Assembly: GCA_030681595.1 (NCBI GenBank)
Contig: JAUXSB010000061.1
Coordinates: 5,392-69,391 of the forward strand
DNA from: Candidatus Omnitrophota bacterium
GTDB lineage: Bacteria > Omnitrophota > Gorgyraeia > Ghiorseimicrobiales > Ghiorseimicrobiaceae
Direction: 5' to 3'
DNA length: 64,000 bases
Shown: positions 4,100-33,635 of the stretch, piece after piece
Layout: the number at the start of each line of letters is the position of its first letter
Position numbering within the stretch: the stretch's first letter is position 1
Program-made: the position numbers and the translations under genes
The notes under the pieces: model-generated
The model's input: the letters and a program-made list of their open reading frames with translations, nothing else
Database searches by the model: none
What the model was told of the DNA's origin: nothing

Positions 4100-4101
4100 T
4101 T

Positions 4102-5299: not shown

Positions 5300-6469
5300 T
5301 TATAAACTTGCTGTTGACTTCTTATTATTTAATTTTTTGTCATATTTATAAACTTTATGCATTCCCCTTTTAAATTCATCGGCATTTTTTCCAAACATTT
5401 TAAGAAAGACTTTTCTATTTTTCCTGATTACACCTCTTGAATAATAAAATGTTGTAATTAATTTAATACCTCGCAATAATATGCTATTCCATTGGGGAGA
5501 GATAATATGTTTTTGGATACTATTTATAGGGCGATATCTCATAGGGAAAATATCAACTCCAAGTTTATTTAATTCATTAATTCGATGATAAAAGAATTCT
5601 GGAGTGTCATATGCCTCTTCTGAATTAAAAATAACATAAACCATTATATCTTTCCCACTATATTTTTTTGCAAGTTTTATCGCATTTTGAATATATCCCT
5701 CTTGTGATGGATTATCAAAAGCAAATCTTAATGGGTCAATTTTCGTTTGGGAAAGAATTTTAGCCTTTTCTTCATCAAAAAGTCTACAATCTATACCTTG
5801 ATTAAAATCAAATGGTTTTCCTATCTTCTTTAATTTTTCAATATCTTTATAAAAATTTGGAGAAGCCAACCAATTATTATCCCAAAAAATAATTTTTTTA
5901 GAATTTGGATTTATATCTTTTTCCCAATTTTTTCTCACAAAGAATTTTGGTTCAAGTAATCGAACAACACAAAATTTACATTTTCTTATACACCCCCTTG
6001 TTGTATATGTTATTGAAAAGGGGAAAGATGGTAGAAAAGAGTAATCAGGACTACATCCTTCAACTTTATCAAAAAGACCAACATGTGGAATTATCCCCGT
6101 TTCTCTTTTTATTAAGTCTGGTAAAAGTGTTGCTAATATACCCCCTACTTTAACTTCAGCATTTGGATATCTACTTTGATAATCTTTTATAGATTTTATT
6201 GCTGCTTGAAAATGATAAGTAAATAGAGTTGTTATATAAATTATATCATATTGCTCTTTAAGTTTTGGTGGTTGATAACCAAAATAATCTTGAGGTGCAT
6301 TATCTTTTATATAATCAACTTCATCTCCTTTATTTTTATGCCAGGTTGAAATTTTCATTAATGCCAATGAAGGATATGGATTCTCATAACCGGGTTCAAC
6401 AAGCAATATTTGTTTATTCATAATTAATCTATAGACCCCATAATATTTAAAGATTCCGCTTTTAACCAA
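5300..6469 (-). CDS. Class B (B12-binding domain) radical SAM protein
   Basis: The N-terminal KQILLVEPGYENPYPSLALMKI is typical of a B12-binding Rossmann domain, followed by TTRGCIRKCKFCVV (CxxxCxxC). The likely true start is the internal Met at about 6421 (MNKQILL). Confidence 0.6.
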   Translation of the reverse strand: MVKSGIFKYYGVYRLIMNKQILLVEPGYENPYPSLALMKISTWHKNKGDEVDYIKDNAPQDYFGYQPPKLKEQYDIIYITTLFTYHFQAAIKSIKDYQSRYPNAEVKVGGILATLLPDLIKRETGIIPHVGLFDKVEGCSPDYSFLPSFPFSITYTTRGCIRKCKFCVVRLLEPKFFVRKNWEKDINPNSKKIIFWDNNWLASPNFYKDIEKLKKIGKPFDFNQGIDCRLFDEEKAKILSQTKIDPLRFAFDNPSQEGYIQNAIKLAKKYSGKDIMVYVIFNSEEAYDTPEFFYHRINELNKLGVDIFPMRYRPINSIQKHIISPQWNSILLRGIKLITTFYYSRGVIRKNRKVFLKMFGKNADEFKRGMHKVYKYDKKLNNKKSTASL

Positions 6470-6623
6470 GGAGATTTTTTAGTTAGTTTGGACTTTTTAT
6501 ACAAGAGCTATTTTATACACAAAGCCTATATTTCCCTCTTCTCCAATACAACCTTTTGAGTTTTATTAAATTTTCTATCTATTTGTCCTCGCCCTGACAA
6601 ACTCCTCCAAATCCTCTATCTAT

Positions 6624-9507: not shown

Positions 9508-10617
9508 TTATTTTAGCTTATTGATAATCTTTTGATTTGCTGAACTCTGTTGATACTCTTTCATCCTTGCATAGCAAATCGACCAGTCAAAAGTATTGTA
9601 TAGGTCATTAAATAAATTATTAGCCCAATTCTTATATCTAACAGAAGAGGGGTTCCAAGCTGTCCATCTGCTGAAGGTTGCCTTGCAATTTGTTACTAAA
9701 GCAAGATTGCCATAGTCATTTCCCCAAAAATATAACTCATTAAAATCTTTTTCTTCAGTATTTAATCCGAGAAAATATGCTACCTGCCCCAAACCTACAG
9801 TGTATGATTGGTAGTTTATTTTAATTCTAATGTCAAAGAAAAATCTCTTATAAAATCTGTATTCGGCGCTGTTGTTATACGTAGAATAATAAATCTTTGT
9901 ACCTTTAGGCATAGCAAGAGCCCTAAATATATTTAAATCATTAAAAAACATATTCTGTTTAAGAGAAATTGGCAATTTATCTTTCTCATATCTTGAAATA
10001 TCATTTTTAACGTTCTCTATTTCTATAAGATGATATTCGCCCATCGTTCCTGAGGGAACCTCTTTTTGAGTTCCGGTTACATGCCAAATATGTCCATAAA
10101 ACATAGAGAGATGACCAAGAATAGCAATAGCTTGAATATCTAAAAGTGGTTTTACTTCTTGAGGCATATTAAAAATAACATCTGTTTTTGAATCCAGAGA
10201 TCTTCTTAAGTAATTGCCAAACACTCCACTCTGTAATCGATAATACTGCCCCAACCCCGGTTTGTCAGGAAAGAACAAAAAGCCATCCTTTACTCTAATC
10301 TTTTTATCTTCATTATTTTTATTATCATTAAAATCTGATTCTTTATGTTCTATAAAATATACTGAAGTTATAGCTCTTTCTAATGTTTCTTCTTTAGTTA
10401 CATAAAATAACGCTCCGATTATAACTCCCGCAATAATTATCGTGGCCTCTTGTATTTTTGTTGAACTTCTATTTATGTACAGAAGCCATAATAAAAAATA
10501 TCCAAGTACTAACAAGCAAATCGGCATTATCTTTGACATAAAACAGCTCCTTTTCTTTGCCCATATTATACCCCTTTTAGTGGCAAATTCTAACCTTTTT
10601 CTTGCCCCGCAAAACAC
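9508..10617 (-). CDS. Hypothetical membrane protein
   Basis: A complete ORF with N-terminal TM helices. The likely start is the internal Met (MSKIMPICLL, about 10539). No recognisable catalytic motif. Confidence 0.35.
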   Translation of the reverse strand: MFCGARKRLEFATKRGIIWAKKRSCFMSKIMPICLLVLGYFLLWLLYINRSSTKIQEATIIIAGVIIGALFYVTKEETLERAITSVYFIEHKESDFNDNKNNEDKKIRVKDGFLFFPDKPGLGQYYRLQSGVFGNYLRRSLDSKTDVIFNMPQEVKPLLDIQAIAILGHLSMFYGHIWHVTGTQKEVPSGTMGEYHLIEIENVKNDISRYEKDKLPISLKQNMFFNDLNIFRALAMPKGTKIYYSTYNNSAEYRFYKRFFFDIRIKINYQSYTVGLGQVAYFLGLNTEEKDFNELYFWGNDYGNLALVTNCKATFSRWTAWNPSSVRYKNWANNLFNDLYNTFDWSICYARMKEYQQSSANQKIINKLK

Positions 10618-17344: not shown

Positions 17345-17839
17345 TTAACGATAATTGCAGAAAGAAAGCGGAAGGGGGAAATCTATGCCTCTTAGATGCG
17401 CAATCACAGCTTGTAAATCGTCTTTCTTCGGCGAGGAAACCTTAATTTTTTCTCCTTCAATCTGAGTCTGTACTTTTAACCCCAGATCCTTGATAATTTT
17501 ATTTAACTCTTTAGCCTTTTCTTTGTCAATGCCGCTTGAAATTTCTACCGCCTGCCGTAAAGTCCCTTCAAAAGCTTTCTCGGGTTCTTTAAAATTAAAG
17601 AATTTTACCGACACCCCTCTTTTGGCTAATCTTGTCGCCAGCATATCCCTTAAAGCGCAGAGCTTAAAATCGTCATCTCCAATAAGAGTCAACTTCTTCT
17701 CAACGCGCTCAAATTCAATAGAAGACTTACTACCCTTAAAATCATACCGCTGGGCAAGCTCCTTCTTCGCCTGATTTACGGCATTATCTACTTCCTGCAT
17801 ATCTATTTCTGAGACAATATCAAAAGAAAAATTAGCCAT
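17345..17839 (-). CDS. yajQ: YajQ family nucleotide (c-di-GMP)-binding protein
   Basis: 164 aa starting [27 protein letters not shown], typical of the YajQ/UPF0234 N-terminus. Confidence 0.75.
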
Positions 17840-20352: not shown

Positions 20353-20416
20353 ATTTTGGCAGCGTTTTCCGCCAAAGGCGGATCCGCCTCCGGCGGAAGC
20401 GGATAGGCGAGCTTTT

Positions 20417-21442
20417 CTACCCGCTATGCGCTGTCCTTAACTGGCCACAGGCGGCAGAAATATCCTCTCCGCGCGCCTGCCTTAATGTAACAAACGTTCC
20501 ATTTTTTATCAACCGTCCCTTAAAAGCCGAAACCGTCTCTTTATCCGGCGGCTGACAAGAAAAATTATCCTGTGCGTTAAAAACAATGAGGTTAACCTTA
20601 CTGTTAAGAGTAGACGAGAGTTTAGACAACTTATCTGCGTCATTTAAACCGTCATTTACTCCTTTTATCAATACGTATTCAAACGTAATCTGACGGTCTG
20701 TCTTCTCTATATAACGCGCGAGGCTAGGTATCAATTTATCTAAGGGGTATTTTTTATTCACCGGCATAAGGCGGCAGCGGAGTTCGTTATCAACGGCATG
20801 CAAAGAAATGGATAATTCAACCTGGAGGCCTTCATCGCTCAAACGCTCAATCTGCGGGATTATGCCACAGCTAGATATTGTAATGCGCCGTGCCCCGATA
20901 TTAAAACCTCCGGATGAATTTAAAATACGTATTGCTTTAAGCACATTGTCATAATTATCCAACGGCTCGCCTATACCCATAAAAACAACATTGGTTACGG
21001 CTTTTCCGGTTATGTTAGTTATCTCTGATAGCTGCGAAGTAATCTCCGATACCGTTAAATTCCGCACAAAATTTTTCCCGCTTGCGCAAAAGCTGCATTT
21101 AAATTTACAACCCGCCTGTGAAGATAAACAAAGCGTATTTCTGCCTTTAGCCGGTATAAAAACAGCCTCTATTGTTTCCCTGTCCGCTAATTCAAAAAGG
21201 AATTTTTCTGTGCCGTCTTTAGACTTTAATCTTTTAACCAAGCTCAAGCCGCCGACATAAAACTTCTCTTCTAACCTAGAAATGTTTTTGCGGGAAATAT
21301 CCGACATAACCTCAAAGCTATTTGCCCCTTTCTTATAAAGCCAGGAAAAAATCTGGGTTGCCAGATAAGGAGCAAAACCTAAGGTGGATAAATCCATCTT
21401 TAGCTCTGTAAAAGACAGATTTTTTATGTCCTGTTTTTCCAT
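20417..21442 (-). CDS. rlmN: 23S rRNA/tRNA adenine C2-methyltransferase RlmN (radical SAM)
   Basis: CLSSQAGCKFKCSFCASG radical SAM cluster, GEPL motif and C-terminal Cys; length 341 aa. Confidence 0.85.
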   Translation of the reverse strand: MEKQDIKNLSFTELKMDLSTLGFAPYLATQIFSWLYKKGANSFEVMSDISRKNISRLEEKFYVGGLSLVKRLKSKDGTEKFLFELADRETIEAVFIPAKGRNTLCLSSQAGCKFKCSFCASGKNFVRNLTVSEITSQLSEITNITGKAVTNVVFMGIGEPLDNYDNVLKAIRILNSSGGFNIGARRITISSCGIIPQIERLSDEGLQVELSISLHAVDNELRCRLMPVNKKYPLDKLIPSLARYIEKTDRQITFEYVLIKGVNDGLNDADKLSKLSSTLNSKVNLIVFNAQDNFSCQPPDKETVSAFKGRLIKNGTFVTLRQARGEDISAACGQLRTAHSG

Positions 21443-21465
21443 TTTATTAAAATTAAAATTGGCCT

Positions 21466-22428
21466 TTAGGAGGGGAGGTCAGTATCTATTCTGCCTACTT
21501 TTCTGAATTTTTCGTATCTTAAATCAAGCAGTTTATCTTTAGGCACAGAACTTAACTCTTTTAAATATTTAAGGATGGTTTGCTTGATATTCTGGGCGGT
21601 CTCTTCAGGATTATTGTGCGCTCCTCCTAACGGCTCGGGTATAACCTCATCAACTAAACCGGCGTTTAATAGATCCATGGAAGTAAGCTTAAGCGCTTCT
21701 GCCGCCTGAGGGGCACGGGCGCTGTCTTTCCATAATATTGCGGCGCATCCTTCAGGAGAGATGACCGAATAGTAAGCATTTTCCAGAATAGAGACCCTGT
21801 CTCCTACGCCTATGCCTAAAGCGCCGCCTGAGCCACCTTCGCCGATAACAACTACCACTATAGGCACATCTATTTTCGCCATATCACGCAGGTTTTCCGC
21901 GATAGCCTGCGCCTGTCCGCGTTCTTCCGCGCCGATTCCCGGATACGCTCCCGGAGTATCAATAAAGGTTACTACCGGCAGGTTAAACCGCGCAGCGAGC
22001 CTCATCAGGCGCATACTTTTTCTAAAGCCTTCCGGGTGGGCACAGCCGAAATTACGCATAATATTTTCTTTTAAATCGCGCCCCTTTTGCTGGCCAATAA
22101 CCATAACCTTATACGGCTCTATCCTGGCGAATCCGCCGATAATAGCCTTATCGTCCCCAAAGAGGCGGTCGCCGTGCAATTCAATAAAATCCACGGCAAT
22201 AAGCCTGATGTAATCTAAAGAATACGGCCTCTGGGGATGGCGGGCAATCTGCACCTTCTGCCAAGCGGTCAATTTTCGATAGGTCTCCTTGCGTAAGCCT
22301 GCCAGCTTCTCCTCTAACGTCTTAATCTCAGCGGATAAATCTACCTTGCGCTCAGAAGAAAAATGCTTCAACTCTTCAATCTTCTTCTCTAATTCTTTTA
22401 TTGGACGTTCAAAATCCAAATTAGCCAT
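21466..22428 (-). CDS. accA: Acetyl-CoA carboxylase carboxyltransferase alpha subunit
   Basis: ARHPQRPYSLDYI..VTFIDTPGAYPG..EERGQAQAIA, canonical AccA; 320 aa. Confidence 0.9.
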   Translation of the reverse strand: MANLDFERPIKELEKKIEELKHFSSERKVDLSAEIKTLEEKLAGLRKETYRKLTAWQKVQIARHPQRPYSLDYIRLIAVDFIELHGDRLFGDDKAIIGGFARIEPYKVMVIGQQKGRDLKENIMRNFGCAHPEGFRKSMRLMRLAARFNLPVVTFIDTPGAYPGIGAEERGQAQAIAENLRDMAKIDVPIVVVVIGEGGSGGALGIGVGDRVSILENAYYSVISPEGCAAILWKDSARAPQAAEALKLTSMDLLNAGLVDEVIPEPLGGAHNNPEETAQNIKQTILKYLKELSSVPKDKLLDLRYEKFRKVGRIDTDLPS

Positions 22429-22429
22429 C

Positions 22430-23272
22430 TTAATCTATAATTACTGCTTCTGTATCAGGCGGGAGAAGCGAAAATAATTCCTCTACTTCTTCGTTTTTCA
22501 TACGCACGCATCCGTCTGTAATCTGCTGCCCCAGCGTCTGCGGCTCGGTAGTGCCGTGAATTCCGTAGCTCGGCAAATCAAAACCCATCCAACGCGTGCC
22601 TAAAATATTTTCCGGATTTCCCGCTGGTATAGGCTCTAGATGACCCGGCTTAAACCACGGCGGGTTAATAATTTTATCCTTAATCTTAAATGTCCCAACC
22701 GGAGTAGAATTATTTTTCCCGGTTGAAACCGTATAGGTCTTGATTATTTCTCCATCAGATTTAAGCATTAAAATATTCTGTGATTTATCCACCAACACAC
22801 TGAATTTACCAGTCCAGACCTTAAGCTTCATCTTCGGCCGAATCATCCCGGACTTAAGCATATTTATTTTAGTTATCAGTTCGACCGTCGTGTTAAACTC
22901 TTTGGCTATCTTAATTAAGCTGTCGCCGGGCTTTACTTCGTATAAACTGCTGTTCGGCGTGATCAAAGTCGGTGAAAGAATAATTTTCATATTTAAATCT
23001 TCTATTTTTTTCTGCACATCTTGTACCTGAGGATAATTTGGATAATTATTTATGATATCCCGATAGGTAGCCTTTGCAAGAAGCAATTCGTTATCCGTTT
23101 CCTGAACCCTGGCTAAATCAAACAACTGGCGGGCCGATGCTACGTTAGGCGCCGCCTTGCTGGTTTTATGCGGAATATTTTTTATAATTAAATAAATGCC
23201 TATTATACCGGCCAGCGAAATAGGAATAATAAAAATCAATTTTTTATTCATATGCTCCCCTGTTTTGCTCAT
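22430..23272 (-). CDS. LysM domain plus L,D-transpeptidase (YkuD) protein
   Basis: LysM segment YEVKPGDSLIKIAKEFNTTVELITKINML. YkuD catalytic segment YGIHGTTEPQTLGQQITDGCVRM. N-terminal TM anchor. Confidence 0.75.
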   Translation of the reverse strand: MSKTGEHMNKKLIFIIPISLAGIIGIYLIIKNIPHKTSKAAPNVASARQLFDLARVQETDNELLLAKATYRDIINNYPNYPQVQDVQKKIEDLNMKIILSPTLITPNSSLYEVKPGDSLIKIAKEFNTTVELITKINMLKSGMIRPKMKLKVWTGKFSVLVDKSQNILMLKSDGEIIKTYTVSTGKNNSTPVGTFKIKDKIINPPWFKPGHLEPIPAGNPENILGTRWMGFDLPSYGIHGTTEPQTLGQQITDGCVRMKNEEVEELFSLLPPDTEAVIID

Positions 23273-23718
23273 CGGCTCATAAAAAGCGCAATGATTATCC
23301 CTAAAATAGATCCGGTGATTACCTGCAGCGGCGTATGCCCGATAAGCTCCTTCAGCCTGTCTTCGTGTATTTTACCTGCCCAATAAATATCATCCATTAC
23401 CTTATTTAAAATCTCTGCCTGTTTGCCTGTTGAACGCCGCACTCCCTGCGCGTCAAACATTGTAACGAACGCAAACATCACTGCCAATGCAAATAACGGT
23501 GAATCAAATCCGAAATGCATCCCGGTAGCAACGGCTAAAGCGCTGGCCCCTGATGCGTGGGCAGAAGGCATCCCTCCTGTTCCTACAAACCAACGGAAAT
23601 CAAATTTCTTCTTTGTGATGACACCGATAAAAACTTTAATACTCTGGGCAATAAACCAGCCCCAGACAGTTGTAATAAGGACTTTATTACTAATAATGGC
23701 TGTAACGAATTCCTGCAT
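23269..23718 (-). CDS. DUF212/YuiD-like acid-phosphatase/vanadium-haloperoxidase-related membrane protein
   Basis: GGMPSAHASGASALA motif; 149 aa; it overlaps the ldt stop. Confidence 0.6.
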   Translation of the reverse strand: MQEFVTAIISNKVLITTVWGWFIAQSIKVFIGVITKKKFDFRWFVGTGGMPSAHASGASALAVATGMHFGFDSPLFALAVMFAFVTMFDAQGVRRSTGKQAEILNKVMDDIYWAGKIHEDRLKELIGHTPLQVITGSILGIIIALFMSR

Positions 23719-23743
23719 TTAAGGCTCCATTTTTATATTTTTA

Positions 23744-24382
23744 TTAATAACTGCTCTGATTAACGGGTAGCACCTGTATAGAAATCTTGGGCTTGTGGGT
23801 GGGCTTTCCCTGATAAATGATATAGCCGTGATTATTTTCTTCGGCTTCTTTTACTGTTTTTCTTCTTTCTGCCTTTGTTTGGTTCTGCTTGCGGCGCGAA
23901 GCTTTCTTTGCTTTCACCAAATTCTTCAACATTTGCTTAAGTTCATCTATCGAGCCTATTTTAGCTTCTAAAACGCCTTTTTCGGATGAAAGCGCGTCAA
24001 TTTTTGCCCTTAAAGTGCTTTCTTTTTGGCTTAAGGCATGGTTTTCCACGGTTAACTCTTCGATTGCCCGCTCTAAACCTGCTATCTCCTGGCGGCCGCC
24101 GGCTAATTCCACCTTCAACTGTTCTAAATTCTGCTTCCCAAGGGCTACTTTTTGCTCAAGATTCTGTTTTTCCTGAGAAACCTGCATTAAGCGCGTTTTC
24201 TCTTCTTCTAGTTGCCTAGTTATCGCGGCATTTCTTTGTTCCAGCTCTGCCAATTGCTTCTTGCGAAGGTTTAAATCCATATTCACCCCCGCATATTTAT
24301 ATACAGAAAAAGCTGCCAGCCCCGCGAGAAAAACTATAATTAATACAAATACCTGCGTATTTGCCCTAATTTTGCTTTTCAT
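23744..24382 (-). CDS. Membrane-anchored coiled-coil protein (function unknown)
   Basis: An N-terminal TM helix is followed by ~150 aa of heptad-like Q/E/L-rich sequence and a basic C-terminal tail. Confidence 0.4.
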   Translation of the reverse strand: MKSKIRANTQVFVLIIVFLAGLAAFSVYKYAGVNMDLNLRKKQLAELEQRNAAITRQLEEEKTRLMQVSQEKQNLEQKVALGKQNLEQLKVELAGGRQEIAGLERAIEELTVENHALSQKESTLRAKIDALSSEKGVLEAKIGSIDELKQMLKNLVKAKKASRRKQNQTKAERRKTVKEAEENNHGYIIYQGKPTHKPKISIQVLPVNQSSY

Positions 24383-24485
24383 AGCATGCCTCTTATTTTT
24401 TAACCTATTACTGTTATTTAAGTTAATTTTCTCCTAAAAATATACACACAAAAGTATTATATTATAAAATCGTAAAAAAGCAAGC

Positions 24486-24716
24486 AAATTACGCCCATAA
24501 CTCCCTGTCTAGGCTGCGGTACTGTACCGCTTCAGAAATATGCTCCGTACGGATATTGGCTGAACCTGCCAAATCCGCAATAGTGCGCGCTACCTTTAAA
24601 ATCTTATCATAGGCGCGAGCACTGAATTTTAACTCGTTTATTGCCGCTTTCAGTAATTCTTCCGCCTCTTTTTCTAAAACACAATGTTTTTTAATCTGCT
24701 TATGATTCGTTAAGGA
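24486..24716 (-). pseudogene. Decayed, startless copy of the yifB/comM 3' end (last ~75 codons)
   Basis: Minus-strand translation HSLTNHKQIKKHCVLEKEAEELLKAAINELKFSARAYDKILKVARTIADLAGSANIRTEHISEAVQYRSLDRELWA. It aligns residue-for-residue with the intact YifB C-terminus (…MSHKQVRKFCVLGKEEGELLKMAMSELNLSARAYDKILKISRTIADLSGSENIKIEHLSETIQYRSLDRNLFF). Nucleotide identity is roughly 70 percent, with shared strings ctgtctaggct, atcttatcata and tttagtaattc. A TAG sits immediately upstream and there is no start codon. Confidence 0.6.
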
Positions 24717-24850
24717 GTGCTAACCTTCGGATATTCGGCCTTATTAAACGCATAAACCTAAGGTCAATTCAACAACCTAAGAGGATGCTTCAATGCAAAA
24801 GTGCGAAATAATCCTTGAACTACCGATGGCGAATCGCGTATAATACATTT

Positions 24851-25957
24851 ATGAGAATTCCCAGGACAAAAGGCGGGTTAGCCGTCATTAATATTACTTC
24901 TTATTGCAACTCGAATTGCATTTTTTGCAAGGAAGGCAAGCATGATCATCCCTTCAACGTCCCCTTGGAAACCATAAAAAAGACTCTTTTGAAACTTAAA
25001 ACTCTGGGGGTCAATGAGGTTAATTTCATGGGGGGCGAAACAGCGTTAAGAAGCGACCTGGAAGAAATCTTTCAATATACGAAAAAACAGGGCATGACGA
25101 TTGGTTTGGTGACGAACGGCCTGAGGTTCTCAGACCCTGTTTTTGCGAAAAGAATTTTAAAGTTCGTAACCTTTATGGAAATTTCAATCCATGCCGCTGA
25201 CAAGAAGATGTATCATGCTATCAGCGGCAGGGATTGTTTCGAAAAATTACTGCGGGGGATAGAAAATATAAACGCCTACAACCAATGTTCAGCTGTTTTT
25301 TTTAACTTTGTCCCCAATTCAATCAACGCTTCAAAAATGACGGATGTTTTCCGGCTCGTTAAGAAAATATGGCCGAAGAATAACGCATTTTTCCATATTA
25401 AAAAATTAGCCATTAAAGGAAAGGTTAAAACAGCCCCGCAGTTGTTACCGAACGACGCCGAATTGCGCAAGCTGTTAAGAACAGCGCTTAGATACGCCGC
25501 TGAAAATAAAATCGGCGTCTGCGTCAGCGGGTTCCCTTTGTGCGCCTACGATGGATTTGAGCACCTCAGCCTCGAACTTCTGCACGAATTAAAGAAAAAT
25601 AAGAATTTCTTCACGAATAGCTACCTTTTGACGGAGAATACGGATTTTTCGTGTCCCAAGACATCCATCCGGAAAGACACCCACTTTCCCGCCAGATGCC
25701 ATCCCTGCGGCCTTAAACGGATATGCCCCGGGCTCGACCAGCAATATTTTGAGATCAAAAATTCAATAAACTACTTGACACCCCAGAAGAAAAATATCAG
25801 GTCCGTGGTCAAAGAATTTTTACTAAAGAACACGCTTTTTCAAGGTGATTACTTTTATCATTACTATCCCTTTAAAGGCCTATTTAAGAAACACGTCATT
25901 GACATGAAACGCGCCGAGAAGATTTCCCGTCATATGGAGAAATTGCTGCTTACCTAA
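24851..25957 (+). CDS. Radical SAM protein with a C-terminal SPASM/twitch-like Cys cluster
   Basis: ITSYCNSNCIFC (CxxxCxxC) near the N-terminus. The C-terminal Cys-rich segment is CVSGFPLCAYDG...CPKTSI...CHPCGLKRICPG. The track start at 24815 is TTG; the ATG at 24851 is preferred, with TATAAT 10 nt upstream. Confidence 0.7.
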   Translation: MRIPRTKGGLAVINITSYCNSNCIFCKEGKHDHPFNVPLETIKKTLLKLKTLGVNEVNFMGGETALRSDLEEIFQYTKKQGMTIGLVTNGLRFSDPVFAKRILKFVTFMEISIHAADKKMYHAISGRDCFEKLLRGIENINAYNQCSAVFFNFVPNSINASKMTDVFRLVKKIWPKNNAFFHIKKLAIKGKVKTAPQLLPNDAELRKLLRTALRYAAENKIGVCVSGFPLCAYDGFEHLSLELLHELKKNKNFFTNSYLLTENTDFSCPKTSIRKDTHFPARCHPCGLKRICPGLDQQYFEIKNSINYLTPQKKNIRSVVKEFLLKNTLFQGDYFYHYYPFKGLFKKHVIDMKRAEKISRHMEKLLLT

Positions 25958-25992
25958 GAAGTTAAACGGCAGACGTTTTCGGGAGGGTGGTT

Positions 25993-27531
25993 TTAAAAGA
26001 AGAGGTTTCTGTCTAGGCTCCTGTACTGTATCGTTTCGCTAAGATGCTCTATTTTGATATTTTCACTCCCGGACAAATCGGCAATTGTCCTTGATATTTT
26101 TAATATCTTATCATAAGCCCTGGCGCTAAGATTAAGCTCACTCATAGCCATTTTTAGTAATTCGCCTTCCTCTTTGCCTAATACACAGAATTTGCGCACT
26201 TGTTTATGGCTCATAAGAGCATTACATAAAATTCCCTCATCCTTGAATCTTTCTCTTTGAGTCGCGCGTGCTTTATTCACTCTTTCCTTAATTTGAGCGG
26301 AGCTCTCAGCAGGTATATTGCCGCTTAATTCCTGATAACGCGCCGGTGAAACCTCAATATGAATATCAATTCTGTCTAAGAGCGGACCAGAAATTTTAAG
26401 CCTATAGTTCTGAATTTTAGCGGGGCTGCAATGGCACGTCCGGGAATGCGAGCTATCGCCAAAATAACCACACGGGCAGGGATTCATTGCCGCAATCAAC
26501 AAAAAACGGCTGGGGTAAGAGGCTGACCTGGAAATACGCGAAACATTGATGTACCCATCTTCTAACGGCTGCCTTAAAACCTCTAATACATCGCGGTGAA
26601 ATTCTGGAAACTCATCCAGAAACAATACGCCGCCATGCGCAAGGCTTATTTCTCCCGGTTTTGCCGCTGCCCCTCCGCCTACAAGGGCGATATCGCTGGC
26701 TGTGTGGTGGGGGCTGCGAAAAGGGCGCGTTACCAGCAATGGTTGATTGGCTGAGAGCAGGCCGCTGATACTATAAAGCTTAGTGGCTTCCAATATTTCT
26801 TCAAATGTCATATCCGGCATTATAGTAGGAAATCTTTTAGCCAACATAGTCTTACCGGCGCCCGGGGGGCCGATCATAAGAATGTTGTGGTTGCCGCTTG
26901 CGGCAATTTCCAACGCCCTTTTTACTAAAATCTGCCCCTTGACATCGGAAAAATCCACATCGTATTTCGCTGTCTCCTTTAATAATTCATTTAAATCTAT
27001 TTTATAAGCGGCTATATTAACGTCGCCGCTTATTATGCCGACTGCCTGGGTTAAATTCTCTACAGGGTAAACTTCGATATCCCCAACGACTGCCGCCTCC
27101 GGGGCATTTTCCAGAGGCAGAAGAAGTTTTTTTCTTCTGCCTTTTTTAACGCTTAAAGCGACAGCCAAAGCCCCTTTTACCGGCCTCACCTTTCCCTCTA
27201 AAGCAAGTTCGCCCAAAATAACATATTCATTTAATTTTTCACTGCTTAATTGTTTAGAGGCGGCTAATACTCCTAAAGCGATAGGTAAATCAAAGGAGGG
27301 GCCTTCTTTTCTTTTATCCGCGGGGGCAAGATTAACCGTAATCCGTTCGGCGGGATAATGGTAGGCGGAATTCTTTATGGCAGATTTAACGCGGTCTTTG
27401 CTTTCTTTTACCGCGGTATCAGGCAAGCCTACAACCACTACGGCAGGCAGGCCTTGGCTGACATCTACTTCTATTTCCACCGGATATACATCTAAACCTA
27501 ATACTACAGCCGAGAATACCTTTGCCAGCAT
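25993..27531 (-). CDS. yifB: YifB/ComM family Mg-chelatase-like AAA+ ATPase
   Basis: Lon-like N-terminal domain, Walker A GPPGAGKT, Walker B VLFLDE, and the C-terminal domain; 512 aa. Confidence 0.85.
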   Translation of the reverse strand: MLAKVFSAVVLGLDVYPVEIEVDVSQGLPAVVVVGLPDTAVKESKDRVKSAIKNSAYHYPAERITVNLAPADKRKEGPSFDLPIALGVLAASKQLSSEKLNEYVILGELALEGKVRPVKGALAVALSVKKGRRKKLLLPLENAPEAAVVGDIEVYPVENLTQAVGIISGDVNIAAYKIDLNELLKETAKYDVDFSDVKGQILVKRALEIAASGNHNILMIGPPGAGKTMLAKRFPTIMPDMTFEEILEATKLYSISGLLSANQPLLVTRPFRSPHHTASDIALVGGGAAAKPGEISLAHGGVLFLDEFPEFHRDVLEVLRQPLEDGYINVSRISRSASYPSRFLLIAAMNPCPCGYFGDSSHSRTCHCSPAKIQNYRLKISGPLLDRIDIHIEVSPARYQELSGNIPAESSAQIKERVNKARATQRERFKDEGILCNALMSHKQVRKFCVLGKEEGELLKMAMSELNLSARAYDKILKISRTIADLSGSENIKIEHLSETIQYRSLDRNLFF

Positions 27532-28026
27532 CTATTGTTTATTTTTTTCTGCCACTTCTATATTAATAAAACCGGAGCTTAAACTCCCGGAAAAGGCATC
27601 TAAACCAAATTCCTTACCGTCATAGCCGGCAAAATCTATCTCTACAGCAACCTGCCATTTACCTGCCTTGTTAATCCAGCCGGCAAGGTCGCCGTTCAAG
27701 AGAAGGCTTTTTTCCTTTGGCAAAATAGTTAAAAAGTGTTCTTTTGCCAGAGGCTCCGGGAAACTTGGATGATATTCGAACTTTTCAGTTTTACCGTTAT
27801 ATGTTCTTACTAGTTTCCATAAATTTTTGTGAGGATAGAAAGATATTACCTGAGCCTCTGAATCAGATAAATTTTCCACTATAGCATCCACGGAAATCTT
27901 CTCTCCTAAAGTATAATTGTTTTTTTCGCTTTTAATCGTAAGGCTAACGGTTTGGTTTTTTTCTTCACAGCACCCAAAAGAAAATATCAAGGACGCAAAA
28001 ATAACCATTAATATTATTTTCTTCAT
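27532..28026 (-). CDS. Hypothetical lipoprotein
   Basis: Signal peptide ending with the lipobox-like LIFSFGCCEEK; 164 aa. Confidence 0.4.
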   Translation of the reverse strand: MKKIILMVIFASLIFSFGCCEEKNQTVSLTIKSEKNNYTLGEKISVDAIVENLSDSEAQVISFYPHKNLWKLVRTYNGKTEKFEYHPSFPEPLAKEHFLTILPKEKSLLLNGDLAGWINKAGKWQVAVEIDFAGYDGKEFGLDAFSGSLSSGFINIEVAEKNKQ

Positions 28027-28110
28027 TGCCGTCTCCTTTTTAAGCTTTATTTTTCGCCTACGCCACCTACTATACTATCATATTACTGCTGAATAAAAAA
28101 CAAAAGCATT

Positions 28111-30144
28111 TTATTCCGCTTCTGTATCGCCATTTCCCAAAGCGATAGCCTCTATCGCTTCCTCAACTTTGCGCTCAATGCTTCTCTCGATGAAACCGGG
28201 TATAGCATCTTGGATTTTTCTCTTAAAATCCGACTTTAGCCATTTAAAATTCATGGCGCTTGATAAACCGGAAAGCTGAAAATCAAAATCTAAAAACGAA
28301 AAATCATCCCTCAAAAGCCTAAGCAGGGGCTTAAATTTAGCCGAATCTTTAATTATATTTTTTGATAGCCGCAATAAGAGTATACTGCTTGCCAAATCGC
28401 TGGTAGAAATCCCGAAATAGCCTTCTAAGCCGACGTCTAAAGACTCTAAATTAATATTATCCAATTTAGCTATCGTATCATCTACTAAAAAATCTGCGGA
28501 AAGCCTATTAAAACCTATGCGGGATAATGACGGCATCCCAAAAAAATCTGCCAGCCATTTAAAAAATTCAAAATTATTTAAACGGCCGTTAGCTATGTTC
28601 ATTACCCCGCTTAGGCTAGGCTGGGGATAATTCTGATAATGAAGCCGGCTGTCCAGCATCCCTTCTACTTTGGAAAAATATACCGATAAAAATTTAAGCT
28701 CATCGGCGCTTACTTTTTTAACATCGAGGTTAAATTCGCATTGAGGCACGGGGCCGTCAATATTAATCTTGCCTTCACCGCTTAAGCGCCCGTCATAAAT
28801 TAATGAATTTAACCCTACCATCCTGATTATTCTTTCCTTAATATTAAATAAGGCGTTAAAATCCCTAAAAAATAAACCATGCATATTGTTTCCCGAGAAA
28901 TACTTGAAATCCGCCTCATCAAAATATATATCCAGATTTTCCCCCGAGCGAAATTTAAAAGCCGCGTTTTTAAACGCCGACTCTATTTTCTGAGGAACGG
29001 TTTTATTTTTAACATTCCTTGCAAAACCCAAAGTTATTTTCCCGTTAAATTTATCTGCGCCTAAATCCCCCAGAATATTAAGGTCAAATGCTAAAGGATT
29101 CTTTCCCCTCTCTTCTGGCGGCTGATAATAATATGTGTAACTGCTTATATTTATAGAGGGCGTGGCAGAAAAGGAAATATTGCCTTTTAGATAAAAAGGT
29201 ATGTCTTTCAGGGAAAACTTTAAACTTTCTATCTCTATATTCTGGGAAGTAAAGACCGCTACCCCGGACATATCAAAAAGATTCAATCCCGGCATGGGCT
29301 TTCTGACAACCTGAACCGCGGCCTGATGCCTGGCAGCCAATGACTTAAACCTATCAATCAGCGGTAGCGTTTTCTCACTAAGGGCGTTGGTGGATAGGCC
29401 GCTGCTTAAAGATAAAAAGCCGTTAAAACGCAAGGCGCTCTTCTCAAAGATACCCCAGAGCTTGGCATAAAAATACTTTCTGCTTACTTCAAGGCTATCC
29501 AAGGCAAATCCTTCGCTGGTTAAATAGCCCTTAAGATCATATTGTAAGGTTTCGGGTTTAATACCCGATAAAACATTCGTTAAATTGATTGATCCGGAGC
29601 TAAGGAAATACCCATGGCCCGCCTTTAGGAAAGCCGTAATTCCGACATGCCTATCCAAATTGCCTTTCTGGGGTAATTTCAAATATGCATTTTTTATACC
29701 TAAATTAAAAAATTTATCCTGCGGGAGGTTTTTTAACAGGTCGGCTAATTTCTGGATATTCTTTTTTAAAAAAGAAATGCAGTCGAGATAATCGCCAGAA
29801 GCTCCATCTATATTTACAGCGCTTACCAAAAAAACCCTTTGGGTTATAAACGCGGGAATAGAAAATGCCAGTTTTACTTTTTTTATAGAAAAAAACGCCG
29901 TTTCTTCAAGAGGTGAATCCCTAAAAACACGGATATCTTCCACGGAAGCCGTGGCCGGAAAATAATACTTTATATTTCCTACGGATACTTTCTGGTTAAT
30001 TTGCCCTGAGATTTCTTTTTCGGCCCTGTGCTTTGAGCCTGTAAGAAAATTATTTATTGCGTTTAAGGAAGCGGAAACTACCCAGAATAAAATAGCGGCA
30101 ACAAGAAGGGACCTAATAATATACTTTCGCAAAAAATAGATCAT
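28111..30144 (-). CDS. AsmA-like large membrane-anchored periplasmic protein
   Basis: 677 aa with a single N-terminal TM helix and a long beta-rich body, similar in architecture to the AsmA family. The family call is tentative. Confidence 0.35.
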   Translation of the reverse strand: MIYFLRKYIIRSLLVAAILFWVVSASLNAINNFLTGSKHRAEKEISGQINQKVSVGNIKYYFPATASVEDIRVFRDSPLEETAFFSIKKVKLAFSIPAFITQRVFLVSAVNIDGASGDYLDCISFLKKNIQKLADLLKNLPQDKFFNLGIKNAYLKLPQKGNLDRHVGITAFLKAGHGYFLSSGSINLTNVLSGIKPETLQYDLKGYLTSEGFALDSLEVSRKYFYAKLWGIFEKSALRFNGFLSLSSGLSTNALSEKTLPLIDRFKSLAARHQAAVQVVRKPMPGLNLFDMSGVAVFTSQNIEIESLKFSLKDIPFYLKGNISFSATPSINISSYTYYYQPPEERGKNPLAFDLNILGDLGADKFNGKITLGFARNVKNKTVPQKIESAFKNAAFKFRSGENLDIYFDEADFKYFSGNNMHGLFFRDFNALFNIKERIIRMVGLNSLIYDGRLSGEGKINIDGPVPQCEFNLDVKKVSADELKFLSVYFSKVEGMLDSRLHYQNYPQPSLSGVMNIANGRLNNFEFFKWLADFFGMPSLSRIGFNRLSADFLVDDTIAKLDNINLESLDVGLEGYFGISTSDLASSILLLRLSKNIIKDSAKFKPLLRLLRDDFSFLDFDFQLSGLSSAMNFKWLKSDFKRKIQDAIPGFIERSIERKVEEAIEAIALGNGDTEAE

Positions 30145-30649
30145 CTATATAAAACTCCACCTTATCAATGGAGTAAATTGCTTTATGGCTCCTCAAAAAA
30201 GCTGATAAGTATTTATACTCCTTGGACTCGGCAAACAAAAGTACTACTTGCCTTGACGATATTATCTCTTTTTCTAAATTTTCCACCAATTCCGCGTTTT
30301 TTTGCCGTTTCGCTATCTCCAAAAGATAAACAAGCGCAAAAACCCGCGCTTTAGATTTCGGATACTTTTTAACAAAGCGGTTAAACGCAGCGAAGGCATC
30401 GTAATAATTAGAGGTCAAGAAATAATATTCTCCAACAGCAAAAAGGGCATTTTCGGCTAACTTAGATTCTCCGAAATCATCTAGAAACATTTTAAAATTC
30501 ATAAAGGCAGAATCTAATTCACCGTTCTTCGCGGCTCTAATGCCTTGAAAGTATAAACTTTTATCCATCTGCGCATAGACAAGAGGGCAAATTGAAAGAA
30601 TAATAAACATCGCAATAAAAAAAACTGTAACCGTTCTTATCTTTATCAT
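30113..30649 (-). CDS. TPR-like repeat protein with an N-terminal signal/TM segment
   Basis: Helical repeats NALFAVGEYYFLTSNYYDAFAAFNRFVKKYPKS are typical of TPR. Confidence 0.35.
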   Translation of the reverse strand: MIKIRTVTVFFIAMFIILSICPLVYAQMDKSLYFQGIRAAKNGELDSAFMNFKMFLDDFGESKLAENALFAVGEYYFLTSNYYDAFAAFNRFVKKYPKSKARVFALVYLLEIAKRQKNAELVENLEKEIISSRQVVLLFAESKEYKYLSAFLRSHKAIYSIDKVEFYIDDLFFAKVYY

Positions 30650-30951
30650 AGTTTAGCCAGCGCTTCAGAAGCTTGCATATCTACCTTGATACCAACTGCT
30701 TGCGCTGAATTATTCGCCTCTTTTATCAGCCCTGCCAAAAGATCATCCAAGCTGACTATCGGTTTGCCATCGCGTAAACGCACTATCGCGGCAGGATAGT
30801 TAAATTTATCCAACGCTGCCACATTAAAAGCACTACAGCCCAACATCCCTTTATCCGTAATCATAAAAACTAAATTAACCGGCCCTATCCCTAAAGGAAT
30901 AACAAAGCCATCAACTTGCCTATTAGCTACTTGTATCTTCTTTGCTTCCAT
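30646..30951 (-). CDS. DUF1805 (YunC-like) family protein
   Basis: 101 aa: VIPLGIGPVNLVFMITDKGMLGCSAFNVAALDKFNYPAAIV matches the YunC/DUF1805 core. Confidence 0.5.
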   Translation of the reverse strand: MEAKKIQVANRQVDGFVIPLGIGPVNLVFMITDKGMLGCSAFNVAALDKFNYPAAIVRLRDGKPIVSLDDLLAGLIKEANNSAQAVGIKVDMQASEALAKL

Positions 30952-30975
30952 TTAATTTGGCAGGCTTAAAAACAA

Positions 30976-32091
30976 TCAAAATCTTGCCGATATACCTATC
31001 TGATTAATTATATTCTTATATTCAGAAAGAGGATTGTTGCTATCCAGGCTCCAGTAGTCAAACCTATAGGATAGAGTGTAATTTTTTGTAAGTGTGTAGT
31101 ACATAGACAGGCGATAATTATACCTATCATCATATTCTGCCATAAATATAGCTTGGCGCTCTTTATAATTTTTTCTCTCAAAATTAGGGGTAAAAGCAAT
31201 ATAAAGACGGTTGTCTTCCAGGAATAGGCCGGCAATAGTCAGAGAACTTTCAAAGGCATAATAATCATTTAAATCCTGAAGCAGGTCATTAGAGGAATTT
31301 CTGGAGGCTTTGCCTTCTAGGGTAATAATATACCTTCCGATATTACGGCTTAAGCCTGCCTCTAGCGCGTAGCGCTCGTCTTGACGCACAAACTCCTGCT
31401 TTACACCGCTGGGGTTTCTGGCTTTTTTGGCATCGTATTCTTTGACGCTATATTCAAAATTTAAATCGCTGTTCCATTCCGACGAGAAAAATGTTTTTGT
31501 GTTAAGAAAATACTTTAGATTATTATAGCTGGAATCTGAGGAAAGGGGATACCAAAGCGTCTCGTAGCCTATCCCCGGCTCAAGGCGTATTCTGCCTTGG
31601 TAGAAAGGATAAAGCCTCGCCGCTGTGCTTACGCTGCTAAAAAGATAATTGCTGTCAGTAAAATCGGAATATAGCTGGTTAAAAGACAATACGTTGGTGT
31701 TTAAGCCGAACCACCTGGTAAATGTCGGCTTCCAGCTAATCATTGCAAATTGAGTATTAAATATATCCCCTTTGTTAGATGAGTCGTTATTAACATTTGT
31801 CTCGTATCCGCTGGAAGCAGAAGCAAATATTTCAAGCCTAAGAAGGCGCTCCTTCTTTCTCTTTTTGATCTTCAGGAACGCTCTTTGCTTAAGCAGCTCG
31901 ATTAACTCGGATGTGGTCTTAGTTTCGGCTATAGCGCTCTGTTTTATGCTGGAAATCTTATCTTCTAACTGAACAGACCTATTTTCGTTCTCATCTGCGC
32001 AAAGGCCTTTTGGGGTATCTAAAAAAATGGTGCTTAGGCAAAGTATAAAAAAAACAAACTGGGCTAATATTTTTTTTAGGCTTATATTCAA
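30976..32091 (-). CDS. Putative outer-membrane beta-barrel protein
   Basis: Signal peptide, alternating hydrophobic beta-strand pattern, and a C-terminal aromatic residue (…GISARF). Confidence 0.35.
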   Translation of the reverse strand: MNISLKKILAQFVFFILCLSTIFLDTPKGLCADENENRSVQLEDKISSIKQSAIAETKTTSELIELLKQRAFLKIKKRKKERLLRLEIFASASSGYETNVNNDSSNKGDIFNTQFAMISWKPTFTRWFGLNTNVLSFNQLYSDFTDSNYLFSSVSTAARLYPFYQGRIRLEPGIGYETLWYPLSSDSSYNNLKYFLNTKTFFSSEWNSDLNFEYSVKEYDAKKARNPSGVKQEFVRQDERYALEAGLSRNIGRYIITLEGKASRNSSNDLLQDLNDYYAFESSLTIAGLFLEDNRLYIAFTPNFERKNYKERQAIFMAEYDDRYNYRLSMYYTLTKNYTLSYRFDYWSLDSNNPLSEYKNIINQIGISARF

Positions 32092-32463
32092 TTATGCCTC
32101 TTATTATTATTCTTGATAAAATCCTATTTTTCGGGGCTCTAAAGAAATATCCCCCGGCTCTGATTTATTGTAGTAGCTAGAGGTATTTTTGTCAACCCCG
32201 TTAGAAATTCCCTGCCATGGCTAATCTTTCTTTGCAAATAAACTCTCTTGAAGCAGTTTCCAATATCCGGTTTTAACCTTTACAATAGTATATAAGAATT
32301 TTCTAACGGGGTCAATATATATTCGCTATTTGCATTTTTGAAGCTATTTTGCTTAACTCTATACCGAACAATGAGTTATATAAAAAAATGCTTTTGGTAT
32401 ACCTCTTGAAAAAACATGCTTTATAGGGTATACTTATAATGTAAAAGGTAAAATATAACTGTA

Positions 32464-32562
32464 AAGGGCAAACTGCGGGAAACCGCAGGACGCAAAGCCT
32501 TGAGCCTAAAGCTCGCCAAAGAATTATGGCGGCAAAGGCAGTCGGTTGCCGGTTAACGCAAA
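32464..32562 (+). promoter_or_regulatory. c-di-GMP-I (GEMM) riboswitch aptamer
   Basis: AGGGCAAAC-UGCGG-GAAA-CCGCAG-GACGCAAAGCC-UUGAGCCUAAAGCUC matches the GEMM consensus: GGCAAAC, a GNRA-tetraloop P1 hairpin, the invariant GACGCAAAGCC, and GCCUAAA in P2. Confidence 0.65.
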
Positions 32563-32564
32563 GA

Positions 32565-32603
32565 AACCCTCAAACCGACTAATGGCTTTGAGGGTTTTTG
32601 AGT
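32565..32603 (+). terminator. Intrinsic terminator (riboswitch expression platform) directly upstream of the RBS
   Basis: aaccctcaaa-ccgactaatggc-tttgagggtt followed by TTTTG; then an AGGAG RBS and the ATG at 32617. Confidence 0.5.
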
Positions 32604-32616
32604 TTAGGAGTAAGAA

Positions 32617-33060
32617 ATGAGAAAAATAACAAAACTAACAATGATAACCGTAAGCCTAATCTGCCTTTTATCTTTACTGGCGCTTCCTGCTTATGCCTTT
32701 GACAAAGCTGAAATGGACCAGGCATTAAGAGAAGAGCTTGCCAAGATACCGGACATGGAAACAAAACAAGCTATCCTTGATGAATACAAAGAGGTTATCC
32801 GCGAAAGGATGCCGGATTTAAACTTAGATGAAGCCACCTGTCAGAGTTGTGAAGAGGATATTAAGGTATTAGAAAATGAATTAGTTATAAACTCTGTCAA
32901 TGGCGTATTAGACGAAGACAAAATACGAAAAGATAGGGAAGTGCTGCCGGAAACCAATACACCTACGCCTGCTCCAACAGTAGTTACCCCGGTCGTGGAG
33001 GTTCCTCCTCCGCCGCCGCCAGTCGCGCCTAAGCCGCCTAAACCACCGTGTGGCTGTTAA
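32617..33060 (+). CDS. Small secreted protein, paralog A (Pro-rich tail ending in CGC)
   Basis: Signal peptide ...ALPAYA, then the conserved module FDKAEMDQALREELAKIPDMETKQAILDEYKEVIRERMPDLNLDEATCQSCEEDIKVLENEL, then PPPPPPVAPKPPKPPCGC. Confidence 0.55.
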   Translation: MRKITKLTMITVSLICLLSLLALPAYAFDKAEMDQALREELAKIPDMETKQAILDEYKEVIRERMPDLNLDEATCQSCEEDIKVLENELVINSVNGVLDEDKIRKDREVLPETNTPTPAPTVVTPVVEVPPPPPPVAPKPPKPPCGC

Positions 33061-33077
33061 TAATCCTGGGGGTTAAA

Positions 33078-33635
33078 ATGAGAAAAATAATCTTTTTATG
33101 TTCTGTGCTCATGCTAGCAGGGATGTTTTGCTGTTTTAAACAAATTTACGCCTTTGACAAAGCTGAAATGGACCAGACATTAAGAGAAGAGCTTGCCAAG
33201 ATACCGGACCTGGAAACAAAACAAGCTATCCTTGATGAGTATAAAGAAGTTATCAGAGAAAAAATGCCGGAGTTAAATATAGATGAGGCAACCTGTCAAA
33301 GCTGTGAAGAGGATATTAAGGTGCTGGAAAAAGAGCTGTTAGCAAGCTTGGACAAAGGAAATATTGATCCTGGGGAATTCTCCGGAGGGAAAGAAAAATT
33401 GCTTGAGAAACAAAAAGTGTACAAAACTATAACTACAAGCAATACTGTAATGCAAGACCAAACCTCATTGAAGACGAGAACTAGGTATTTCGATGCAGAC
33501 GGCAACCCGGCTTGTGGCTGCGACTCTACCGCCACGGCGGTTACAGATCAAGTTGCGGTAACAACACAGGTACCGGTTACAGTAACCACAACATCGACAG
33601 TTGAAGCCGGTGAAACAGTAGCGGCAGCACAATAA
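33078..33635 (+). CDS. Small secreted protein, paralog B (Thr/Val-rich tail, CGC motif)
   Basis: Start at the ATG at 33078 (GGGGG RBS); the track ORF starts earlier. It carries the same conserved module as paralog A, with about 90 percent nucleotide identity over ~190 nt, then ...PACGCDSTATAVTDQVAVTTQVPVTVTTTST. Confidence 0.55.
   Translation: MRKIIFLCSVLMLAGMFCCFKQIYAFDKAEMDQTLREELAKIPDLETKQAILDEYKEVIREKMPELNIDEATCQSCEEDIKVLEKELLASLDKGNIDPGEFSGGKEKLLEKQKVYKTITTSNTVMQDQTSLKTRTRYFDADGNPACGCDSTATAVTDQVAVTTQVPVTVTTTSTVEAGETVAAAQ

Follow-up and report, generated by a model that had tools for sequence, protein, structure and literature searches.

The gene comM (yifB) of a Candidatus Omnitrophota metagenome-assembled genome (39.7% GC) has two 3′ ends, which raises the question of which end is the original one, how the other arrived, and what the gene lodged between them is. 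The stretch of DNA analyzed here, called the window, is 64,000 nucleotides of contig JAUXSB010000061.1 (positions 5,392 to 69,391). Its full-length comM encodes 512 aa at 25993-27531 on the minus strand, a startless second copy of the last ~75 codons lies on the same strand exactly 1504 bp away, and a gene encoding a radical S-adenosylmethionine (radical-SAM) protein occupies the interval on the opposite strand. An earlier note made from the sequence alone had described this arrangement correctly, and had taken it for the footprint of an integrated element, with the copy at 25993 as the real gene end, the startless copy as a decayed duplicate, and the cargo as a SPASM-domain maturase with a possible precursor peptide. 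The region is better read as a scar left by the recent horizontal acquisition of foreign DNA in the 3′ part of comM, a reading to which we assign a probability of about 0.8; the fact of import and its polarity are established by the comparisons below, and the route is what we infer from the junctions.

The two copies are unquestionably related, with a significant blastn alignment (E = 2.7e-20). The ~70% nucleotide identity originally given for them holds for the best 179 nt (69.8%) and drops to 64% in an ungapped alignment anchored at the stop codons, in which 148/231 nt and 50/77 residues match; 10,000 shuffles yielded at most 88 matches. Similarity sets in sharply at ~24720/26224 and runs to the stop codons. 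The matches fall on the first, second, and third codon positions in 53, 61, and 34 of 77 cases, a pattern that, judged from the sequences, is that of two functional genes diverged under selection and not that of decay. The startless copy is an open frame of 75 codons without a frameshift, from 24489 to ~24716, and matches positions 31-94 of 94 of Pfam Mg_chelatase_C (E = 1.4e-24). It is preceded by an in-frame stop, and its sole in-frame start-like codon, a TTG, would leave 27 residues.

Relatives in which the site is empty show which copy is native. A protein-database search with ComM yielded the informative ones: L086/L087, with a comM 87% identical (P0009, on a 194-kb contig), and L088 (74%, P0010). 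A genome scan with ComM returned 80 loci, the best only 58% identical and none with synteny or a radical-SAM gene, and a metagenome scan with a piece of the comM tail was dominated by a generic DRIDIHIE pattern, ~9/80 loci being of the right type. The gene order 677-aa gene, comM, coiled-coil gene (212 aa; 23744-24382 of the window, minus strand), DUF212, LysM/YkuD, accA, and rlmN is common to the window, L086/L087, and L088, the last of which ends within DUF212; a 164-aa gene between the 677-aa gene and comM is found in L086/L087 and not in L088. In syntenic L086, L087, and L088 we detected neither a radical-SAM gene nor a second comM piece, and each has a single comM, with no intact second paralogue in these, the closest relatives found. 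By blastn, window 30912-26351 matches L086 6625-11181 at 88%, and window 24711-21464 matches L086 11332-14590 at 90%. Between these blocks lie 1639 bp of the window (24712-26350) to which nothing in the relatives corresponds, and the window in turn lacks 150 bp of native comM (L086 11182-11331). Collinearity with L088 breaks at 26351 and 24708, compared with 26351 and 24711 for L086, and L088 7412-8850 covers the fragment together with the downstream genes.

The startless copy is 90% identical at the nucleotide level to the L086 gene end and is contiguous with native downstream DNA, and its dN/dS against L086 (0.068) is like that of live genes (0.078 for comM codons 1-394, 0.088 for DUF212, and 0.084 for accA). 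This identifies it as the original gene end, moved so recently that relaxed constraint does not yet show. Against P0009, the window ComM is 96.6% identical in its N-terminal part and only 67.9% in its tail. On these comparisons the startless copy is the displaced native comM end and the live end (residues 395-512) is the imported one, which reverses the roles of real end and decayed duplicate first given to them; the underlying proposal, that horizontally acquired DNA entered the 3′ part of comM together with a substitute gene end, is backed by the empty sites. Native codons 1-394 (26351-27531, minus strand) belong to a 4.5-kb block collinear with L086, identity to which collapses after 26351. 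The imported end, residues 395-512 plus stop, occupies 25993-26350 on the minus strand; it does cover the duplicated stretch but is longer than had been supposed, the switch in identity against L086 placing its beginning at 26350 rather than 26220. The displaced end, 73 codons plus stop with an intact frame, spans 24489-24711 on the minus strand and is defined by its collinearity with L086 and L088. The chimeric comM product scores 630.6 bits on TIGR00368 (cutoff 362.4) with residues 5-504 covered. Base composition did not separate native from foreign DNA: neither GC content nor GC at third codon positions (GC3) distinguished the fragment, the live end, the comM body, and their neighbors, the sole outlier being a slightly raised GC3 in the radical-SAM gene (0.53 vs 0.36-0.49 elsewhere).

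The 1639-bp foreign segment (24712-26350) took the place of 150 native bp, or ~50 codons. It consists of a 118-codon comM tail, a 35-bp spacer between convergent stop codons (25958-25992), the convergent radical-SAM gene (24851-25957, plus strand), and 139 bp upstream of that gene (24712-24850), which contain a promoter-like site and a 16-codon open reading frame (ORF) and have no counterpart in L086 or L088. The chimeric comM is still full length, with native codons 1-394 joined to imported codons 395-512, while the last 73 native codons now lie 1.5 kb downstream as a startless, probably inert fragment in which decay has not yet begun. The radical-SAM gene would be passenger cargo with no precursor peptide alongside it, and the donor would have carried a tail type native to a different Omnitrophota clade.

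A search for close homologues of the imported tail (119 residues) and of the radical-SAM protein covered 5.8 billion proteins. For the tail, the best 120 matches (68-87% identity) were all stand-alone comM C-terminal pieces of 107-196 aa, many of them on long contigs. Two tail types could be distinguished among 115 full-length Omnitrophota ComM proteins: "...DRDFFV," in proteins whose N-terminal parts are ~60% identical to that of the window, and "...DRNLWL," in the window's own clade. The imported tail is 75-81% identical at the nucleotide level and 80-87% at the protein level to the ...DRDFFV-type tails of the other clade. N-terminal part and tail are discordant in five of the 115 comM genes, the window's included. 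One of these, in L181 (179-1925, P0013), combines an N-terminal part of the window's clade with the tail of the other clade and has neither cargo nor a displaced piece, which points to homologous tail replacement without an island; its tail is followed by an apparent remnant of the donor clade's downstream helix-turn-helix (HTH) gene. In another chimeric comM (P0073), the contig ends at the hotspot.

The two junctions of the window differ in kind. The left switch from native to donor sequence falls inside codon 394, where the block that encodes GPLLDRIDIHIEV ends on its 3′ side, and in a three-way alignment the change to the donor type comes directly after ...CATATTGA. This block of ~45 nt is the best-conserved nucleotide stretch of that part of comM in all compared sequences. 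The right junction, 24711/24712, lies at native codon ~444 and is abrupt, without homology. There is no recombinase in the insert, and the flanking genes from 20.4 to 32.7 kb are a syntenic housekeeping set without a recombinase Pfam family. A homologous anchor with a nearby non-homologous joint and a small deletion is the signature of homology-facilitated illegitimate recombination, and the most likely route would be one such event, in which the incoming DNA would have been anchored by one end in the GPLLDRIDIHIEV block and joined by the other, without homology, ~150 bp further on; our confidence in this route is about evenly balanced by doubt. Homology-facilitated illegitimate recombination has been described for natural transformation in Acinetobacter and Streptococcus, and to our knowledge it has never been demonstrated in Omnitrophota. 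The window resembles it in having one anchor and one near non-homologous joint, a gain of foreign DNA, a loss of 150 bp from the recipient, and no need for a recombinase, and differs from it in the low identity of the anchor (~70-75%, with one ~45-nt block near 90%).

The reputation of comM as an insertion hotspot, invoked in the earlier note, was borne out for Omnitrophota by comM pieces that bound variable islands. In L089, L090, and L178 the order is full-length comM, variable cargo, a stand-alone comM piece, and conserved host genes. As cargo, L089 has an AbiEi-like set, L090 a cyclic oligonucleotide-based antiphage signaling system (CBASS) operon that includes cyclase, patatin, and E2, together with a methyltransferase, and L178 uncharacterised genes; in L177, a TraG-family gene adjoins the comM piece. 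Stand-alone tail pieces are widespread and lie at L089 9908-10387, L090 9908-10387 and 17105-17638, L096 515-988, L097 10001-10390, L177 1956-2429, L178 9908-10381, and L179 9881-10354. L093, an empty site of the second clade, is 77-81% identical to the L089 and L090 pieces with their downstream DNA and 70-71% identical to the live ends. By this comparison the pieces are displaced native ends in L089 and L090 too, and the live ends came with the cargo.

Many of these pieces begin at fixed positions. Ten start at the same nucleotide, just before TGCCCnTGCGG (codon 352, CPCG), among them those of L089, L090 (two), L094, L096, L097, L177, L178, and L179, and the pieces of L089, L090, and L096 are preceded by a conserved end of ~220 nt with an Xre-type HTH gene paralogous to the HTH gene that follows comM in that clade. 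For other pieces the start is codon 215 or ~480. Large serine recombinase genes abut comM pieces in L097 (10370-11998, codon 483) and L172 (8325-9929, ~codon 345), and at codon 215 in L174 (7779-9566) and L175 (7984-9516); the recombinases consist of a Resolvase and a zinc-ribbon domain, plus a Recombinase domain except in L175, and L172, L174, and L175 are viral contigs (IMG/VR) from other taxa. This leaves no doubt that site-specific integration into comM takes place in this gene family. The L089 live end (6139-6618) and piece (9908-10387) are 100% identical for 390 nt and only ~80% identical over the remaining 90 nt, the change coming near codon 482. This suggests that the copies have undergone gene conversion, or that a further insertion site lies at that point.

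Further comM loci have layouts of their own. In L119 and L129, duplicates of the tail cover 28-34 codons, from codons 478 and 483 onward. L179 contains four comM pieces in 14 kb (3954-4868, 6344-6469, 9881-10354, and 17350-17697, from codons 215, 470, 352, and 345) with RadC, Fic, HTH, and response-regulator genes between them, which looks like stacked insertions. In L091, a full-length comM is directly followed by an IS200-like (Y1_Tnp) transposase gene (5945-6448). The gene is divergent from the DUF212, LysM-YkuD, and accA block in L089, L090, and L178 and co-directional with it in the window, L086, and L181; comM orientation thus differs between clades, and the hotspot gene must therefore have been inverted relative to its neighbors at some point.

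Some of these observations weigh against a single illegitimate recombination in the window. No donor with this radical-SAM gene beside a comM tail was found, and it is by inference that the import is read as a single piece; away from the conserved block, the comM sequences of donor and recipient share only ~70-75% identity, a poor substrate for RecA-type anchoring; and tail duplicates in other Omnitrophota arise at junctions that are fixed and look site-specific. A site-specific origin followed by trimming is accordingly a contender, though we think it has the poorer chances, and it concerns only the route by which the foreign DNA came in. It supposes that an island entered at the CPCG codons (codon 352) with ~160 replacement codons, after which gene conversion would have restored native codons 352-394 and a deletion would have removed the recombinase or other cargo, the right end of the island, and native codons 352-444, so that of the cargo just the radical-SAM gene would have remained. 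The shared start nucleotide of the related pieces, the conserved ~220-nt end with its Xre-type HTH gene, and the serine recombinase genes that abut pieces in L097, L172, L174, and L175 all speak for it, as does the exchange of sequence between copies in L089, and the islands of L089, L090, and L178 show that a recognisable recombinase can be missing. However, this course of events requires three steps, when a single one is enough. The window junctions (codon 394 and native codon ~444) both miss the fixed positions of the related pieces (codons 352, 215, and ~480), and the 150 bp that are missing are hard to square with Campbell-type integration, which loses no target DNA. The conserved island end has no resemblance to the DNA 5′ of the radical-SAM gene, and the 139 bp there and the spacer have no homologue in any fetched locus by blastn or tblastx. 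The integrated element proposed at the outset thus finds no recombinase, no junction at a fixed position, and no account of the lost 150 bp, and homology-anchored illegitimate recombination fits at least equally well.

The remaining explanations concern the import itself. A chimeric assembly, made from two strains that occur together and differ in their comM tails, would suit a metagenome-assembled genome, and hotspots do break contigs elsewhere (at the ends of L180 and L177), but an independently built 12,381-bp Logan contig agrees with window 20372-32752 at 100% identity, which makes an artefact unlikely; a chimera would not put a complete unrelated gene between the tails, and like structures recur in many unrelated assemblies, and we regard this explanation as very improbable. 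Even less credible is a local duplication of the gene's own end that has since decayed. The direct orientation of the copies and their identity of only 64-70% would be compatible with it, yet the startless copy, with its 90% identity to the L086 gene end, is free of frameshifts and stops and has the dN/dS of its live neighbors, the differences between the copies concentrate at third codon positions, and the end foreign to the lineage is the live one. A second comM paralogue decayed in place, for which nothing speaks beyond the presence of a second comM-like stretch, can be set aside almost entirely, given that L086, L087, and L088 have one comM with the coiled-coil gene directly after it and that the fragment is contiguous with the relatives' native intergenic DNA and downstream genes.

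Several known systems share features with the imported tail and its cargo. In the orphan C-terminal modules of rhs and cdiA, a new 3′ end and an adjacent gene enter through a conserved block, and the old end is displaced, so that orphan arrays build up. The window is similar in that the new end came through a conserved upstream block and the old one lies startless downstream; unlike the variable tail of rhs and cdiA, which is a toxin payload with an immunity gene, the comM tail would be only a handle, with unrelated cargo. SCCmec and recombinase-less pseudo-SCC elements at rlmH and SGI1-type elements at trmE are islands in the 3′ ends of housekeeping genes that are kept intact. As in those islands, the window gene is functional and direct repeats of the gene end flank the cargo, and related comM loci show tandem accretion, recombinase-less members, and large serine recombinases. 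The att-core repeats of SCC- and SGI1-type islands measure ~15-20 bp, whereas the comM repeats are 73-160 codons of diverged coding sequence, and the window has no recombinase and junctions off the fixed positions. Islands at trmE have been reported (PMC7449626), and comM is itself the target of Tn6022/AbaR (PMC10293859) and Tsy (PMC11441513), which insert at its Walker B motif and inactivate it. The target gene and the comM fragments that flank the cargo are common to these elements and the window. They use TnsF or tyrosine recombinases and split comM, whereas the window comM is intact, with breakpoints at codons 394/437 (215, 352, and ~480 in relatives), far downstream of the AAA core, and neither tnsF/tnsABC nor tyrosine recombinase genes of the kind carried by Tn6022/AbaR and Tsy are present. 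In the literature we found only elements that disrupt comM and no description of islands that restore its tail.

The finding is an ordinary kind of horizontal-transfer scar, cleanly resolved, at a much-used hotspot. For annotation, it means that comM is a chimera, that the fragment is its original end, and that the radical-SAM gene is recent cargo with no evidence of a peptide-maturation cluster. Beyond this genome, the 3′ third of comM is a heavily used insertion hotspot in an uncultured phylum, available in clean empty and occupied pairs, with islands that carry defense systems (CBASS, AbiE-like) or conjugation genes. Unlike AbaR/Tn6022 and Tsy, these insertions preserve comM, a helicase that supports natural transformation, which would matter for continued DNA uptake. 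A bolder idea, which we consider unlikely but worth stating, is that throughout Omnitrophota the conserved comM tail works as a landing pad, or as a homology arm that can be carried about, by which any adjacent gene may be moved between distant lineages. Some moves would then proceed by serine recombinases at three fixed comM positions and others by recombination in the conserved block, amounting to a phylum-wide, largely recombinase-less exchange of cassettes that leaves comM intact and stacks displaced tails downstream.

The cargo gene starts at ATG 24851 (368 aa) or TTG 24815, ends at 25957, and is the only plus-strand gene between 19450 and 32091. Its product matches PF04055 with E = 1.6e-21 and 77.6 bits (cutoff 29.5) and has the motif C19-x3-C23-x2-C26. 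The SPASM assignment failed on hidden Markov model (HMM) typing, which gave no PF13186 match at E <= 10 and no NCBIfam model above cutoff; PF13186 was likewise missing at E <= 10 from the C-terminal 185 residues and from the homologues P0002 and P0003. Matches to NCBIfam SPASM families were confined to the N-terminal core and far below cutoffs. The best partial NCBIfam matches (archaeal MoaA, NirJ1, TrsS, and HxsC) also covered the core only, as did those to PDB profiles and PADLOC models (GDGT-MAS, viperins, SkfB, MoaA, and pVip). Scores for specific identities fell short of the curated cutoffs, and a viperin-like defense enzyme was rejected: as HxsC, the protein reaches 60.2 bits on TIGR03977 against a cutoff of 267.9, over residues 24-245, and as a prokaryotic viperin (pVip), 54.9 bits on NF038283 against a cutoff of 180, with the PADLOC pVip model giving 65.7 bits over residues 14-183 only.

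Set against the seven-cysteine SPASM motif (C-x9-15-G-x4-C ... C-x2-C-x5-C-x3-C ... C), the C-terminal cysteines conserved among the three homologues are only C231 and C283-x2-C286-x5-C292-P-G. These four would probably suffice for one putative auxiliary Fe-S cluster of a twitch-like kind. An AlphaFold model built from a 7-sequence alignment had a predicted local distance difference test (pLDDT) score of 54.8 overall and <50 over residues 227-321, the region of the C-terminal cysteines, where it is unreliable.

The only close homologues among the 5.8 billion proteins were P0002 (54%) and P0003 (47%), and an exhaustive search of 1.84 billion representatives at E <= 1e-30 gave 23 matches, many of them fused proteins with 2-4 radical-SAM domains. 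The distant relatives P0250-P0397 likewise include many fusions of 600-1900 aa with 2-4 radical-SAM domains of the same kind. P0002 and P0003 are both encoded inside arrays of 10-18 consecutive radical-SAM genes on other Omnitrophota contigs (L082/L083/L084 1-21074; L085 1-14033; the array extends past the right edge of the locus), and several of the genes are B12-binding. The first genes of the L082 array, which includes P0002, encode bona fide HxsD and HxsB together with a repeat protein weakly like HxsA and an HxsC4-like enzyme. What links the window gene to His-Xaa-Ser systems (HxsB/HxsC; TIGR03978/TIGR03977) is the HxsD and HxsB of the P0002 array and its own partial HxsC match, and it differs from them in standing alone, no hxsA, hxsB, or hxsD gene being present in the window neighborhood. 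It is best read as encoding a predicted HxsC-like tailoring enzyme that has been separated from a multi-enzyme array. These unusual arrays of 10-18 radical-SAM genes, starting with a His-Xaa-Ser system, are a further lead.

The 16-codon ORF at 24793-24843 (MQKCEIILELPMANRV) and its GAGGA motif are both present, as the earlier note had it, and nothing favored the role of precursor peptide offered for it. No such ORF precedes P0002 or P0003, whose upstream neighbors end at a distance of 12-34 nt, and it showed no similarity in the fetched loci by blastn or tblastx. With no PF13186 match and no conserved precursor gene, a SPASM maturase acting on a precursor peptide was rejected. The ORF also overlaps a promoter-like sequence, TTGAAC-18-TATAAT at 24815-24844 (10/12 consensus score), whose -10 element ends 7 nt before ATG 24851; this is a consensus match only, in AT-rich DNA, where 10 sites of such a score were found against 4.6 expected. 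If the promoter is real, the 16-codon ORF would therefore lie outside the radical-SAM transcript. ATG 24851 has no Shine-Dalgarno motif, while about half of the window genes have one, which hints at a leaderless transcript for the radical-SAM gene.

Further along the window, a direct repeat of 62 bp, 97% identical, is located at 32691-32752 and 33146-33207, in the adjacent ORFs 32617-33060 and 33048-33635, which may be paralogues. The independent Logan contig stops exactly at the first of these repeats (32691-32752).

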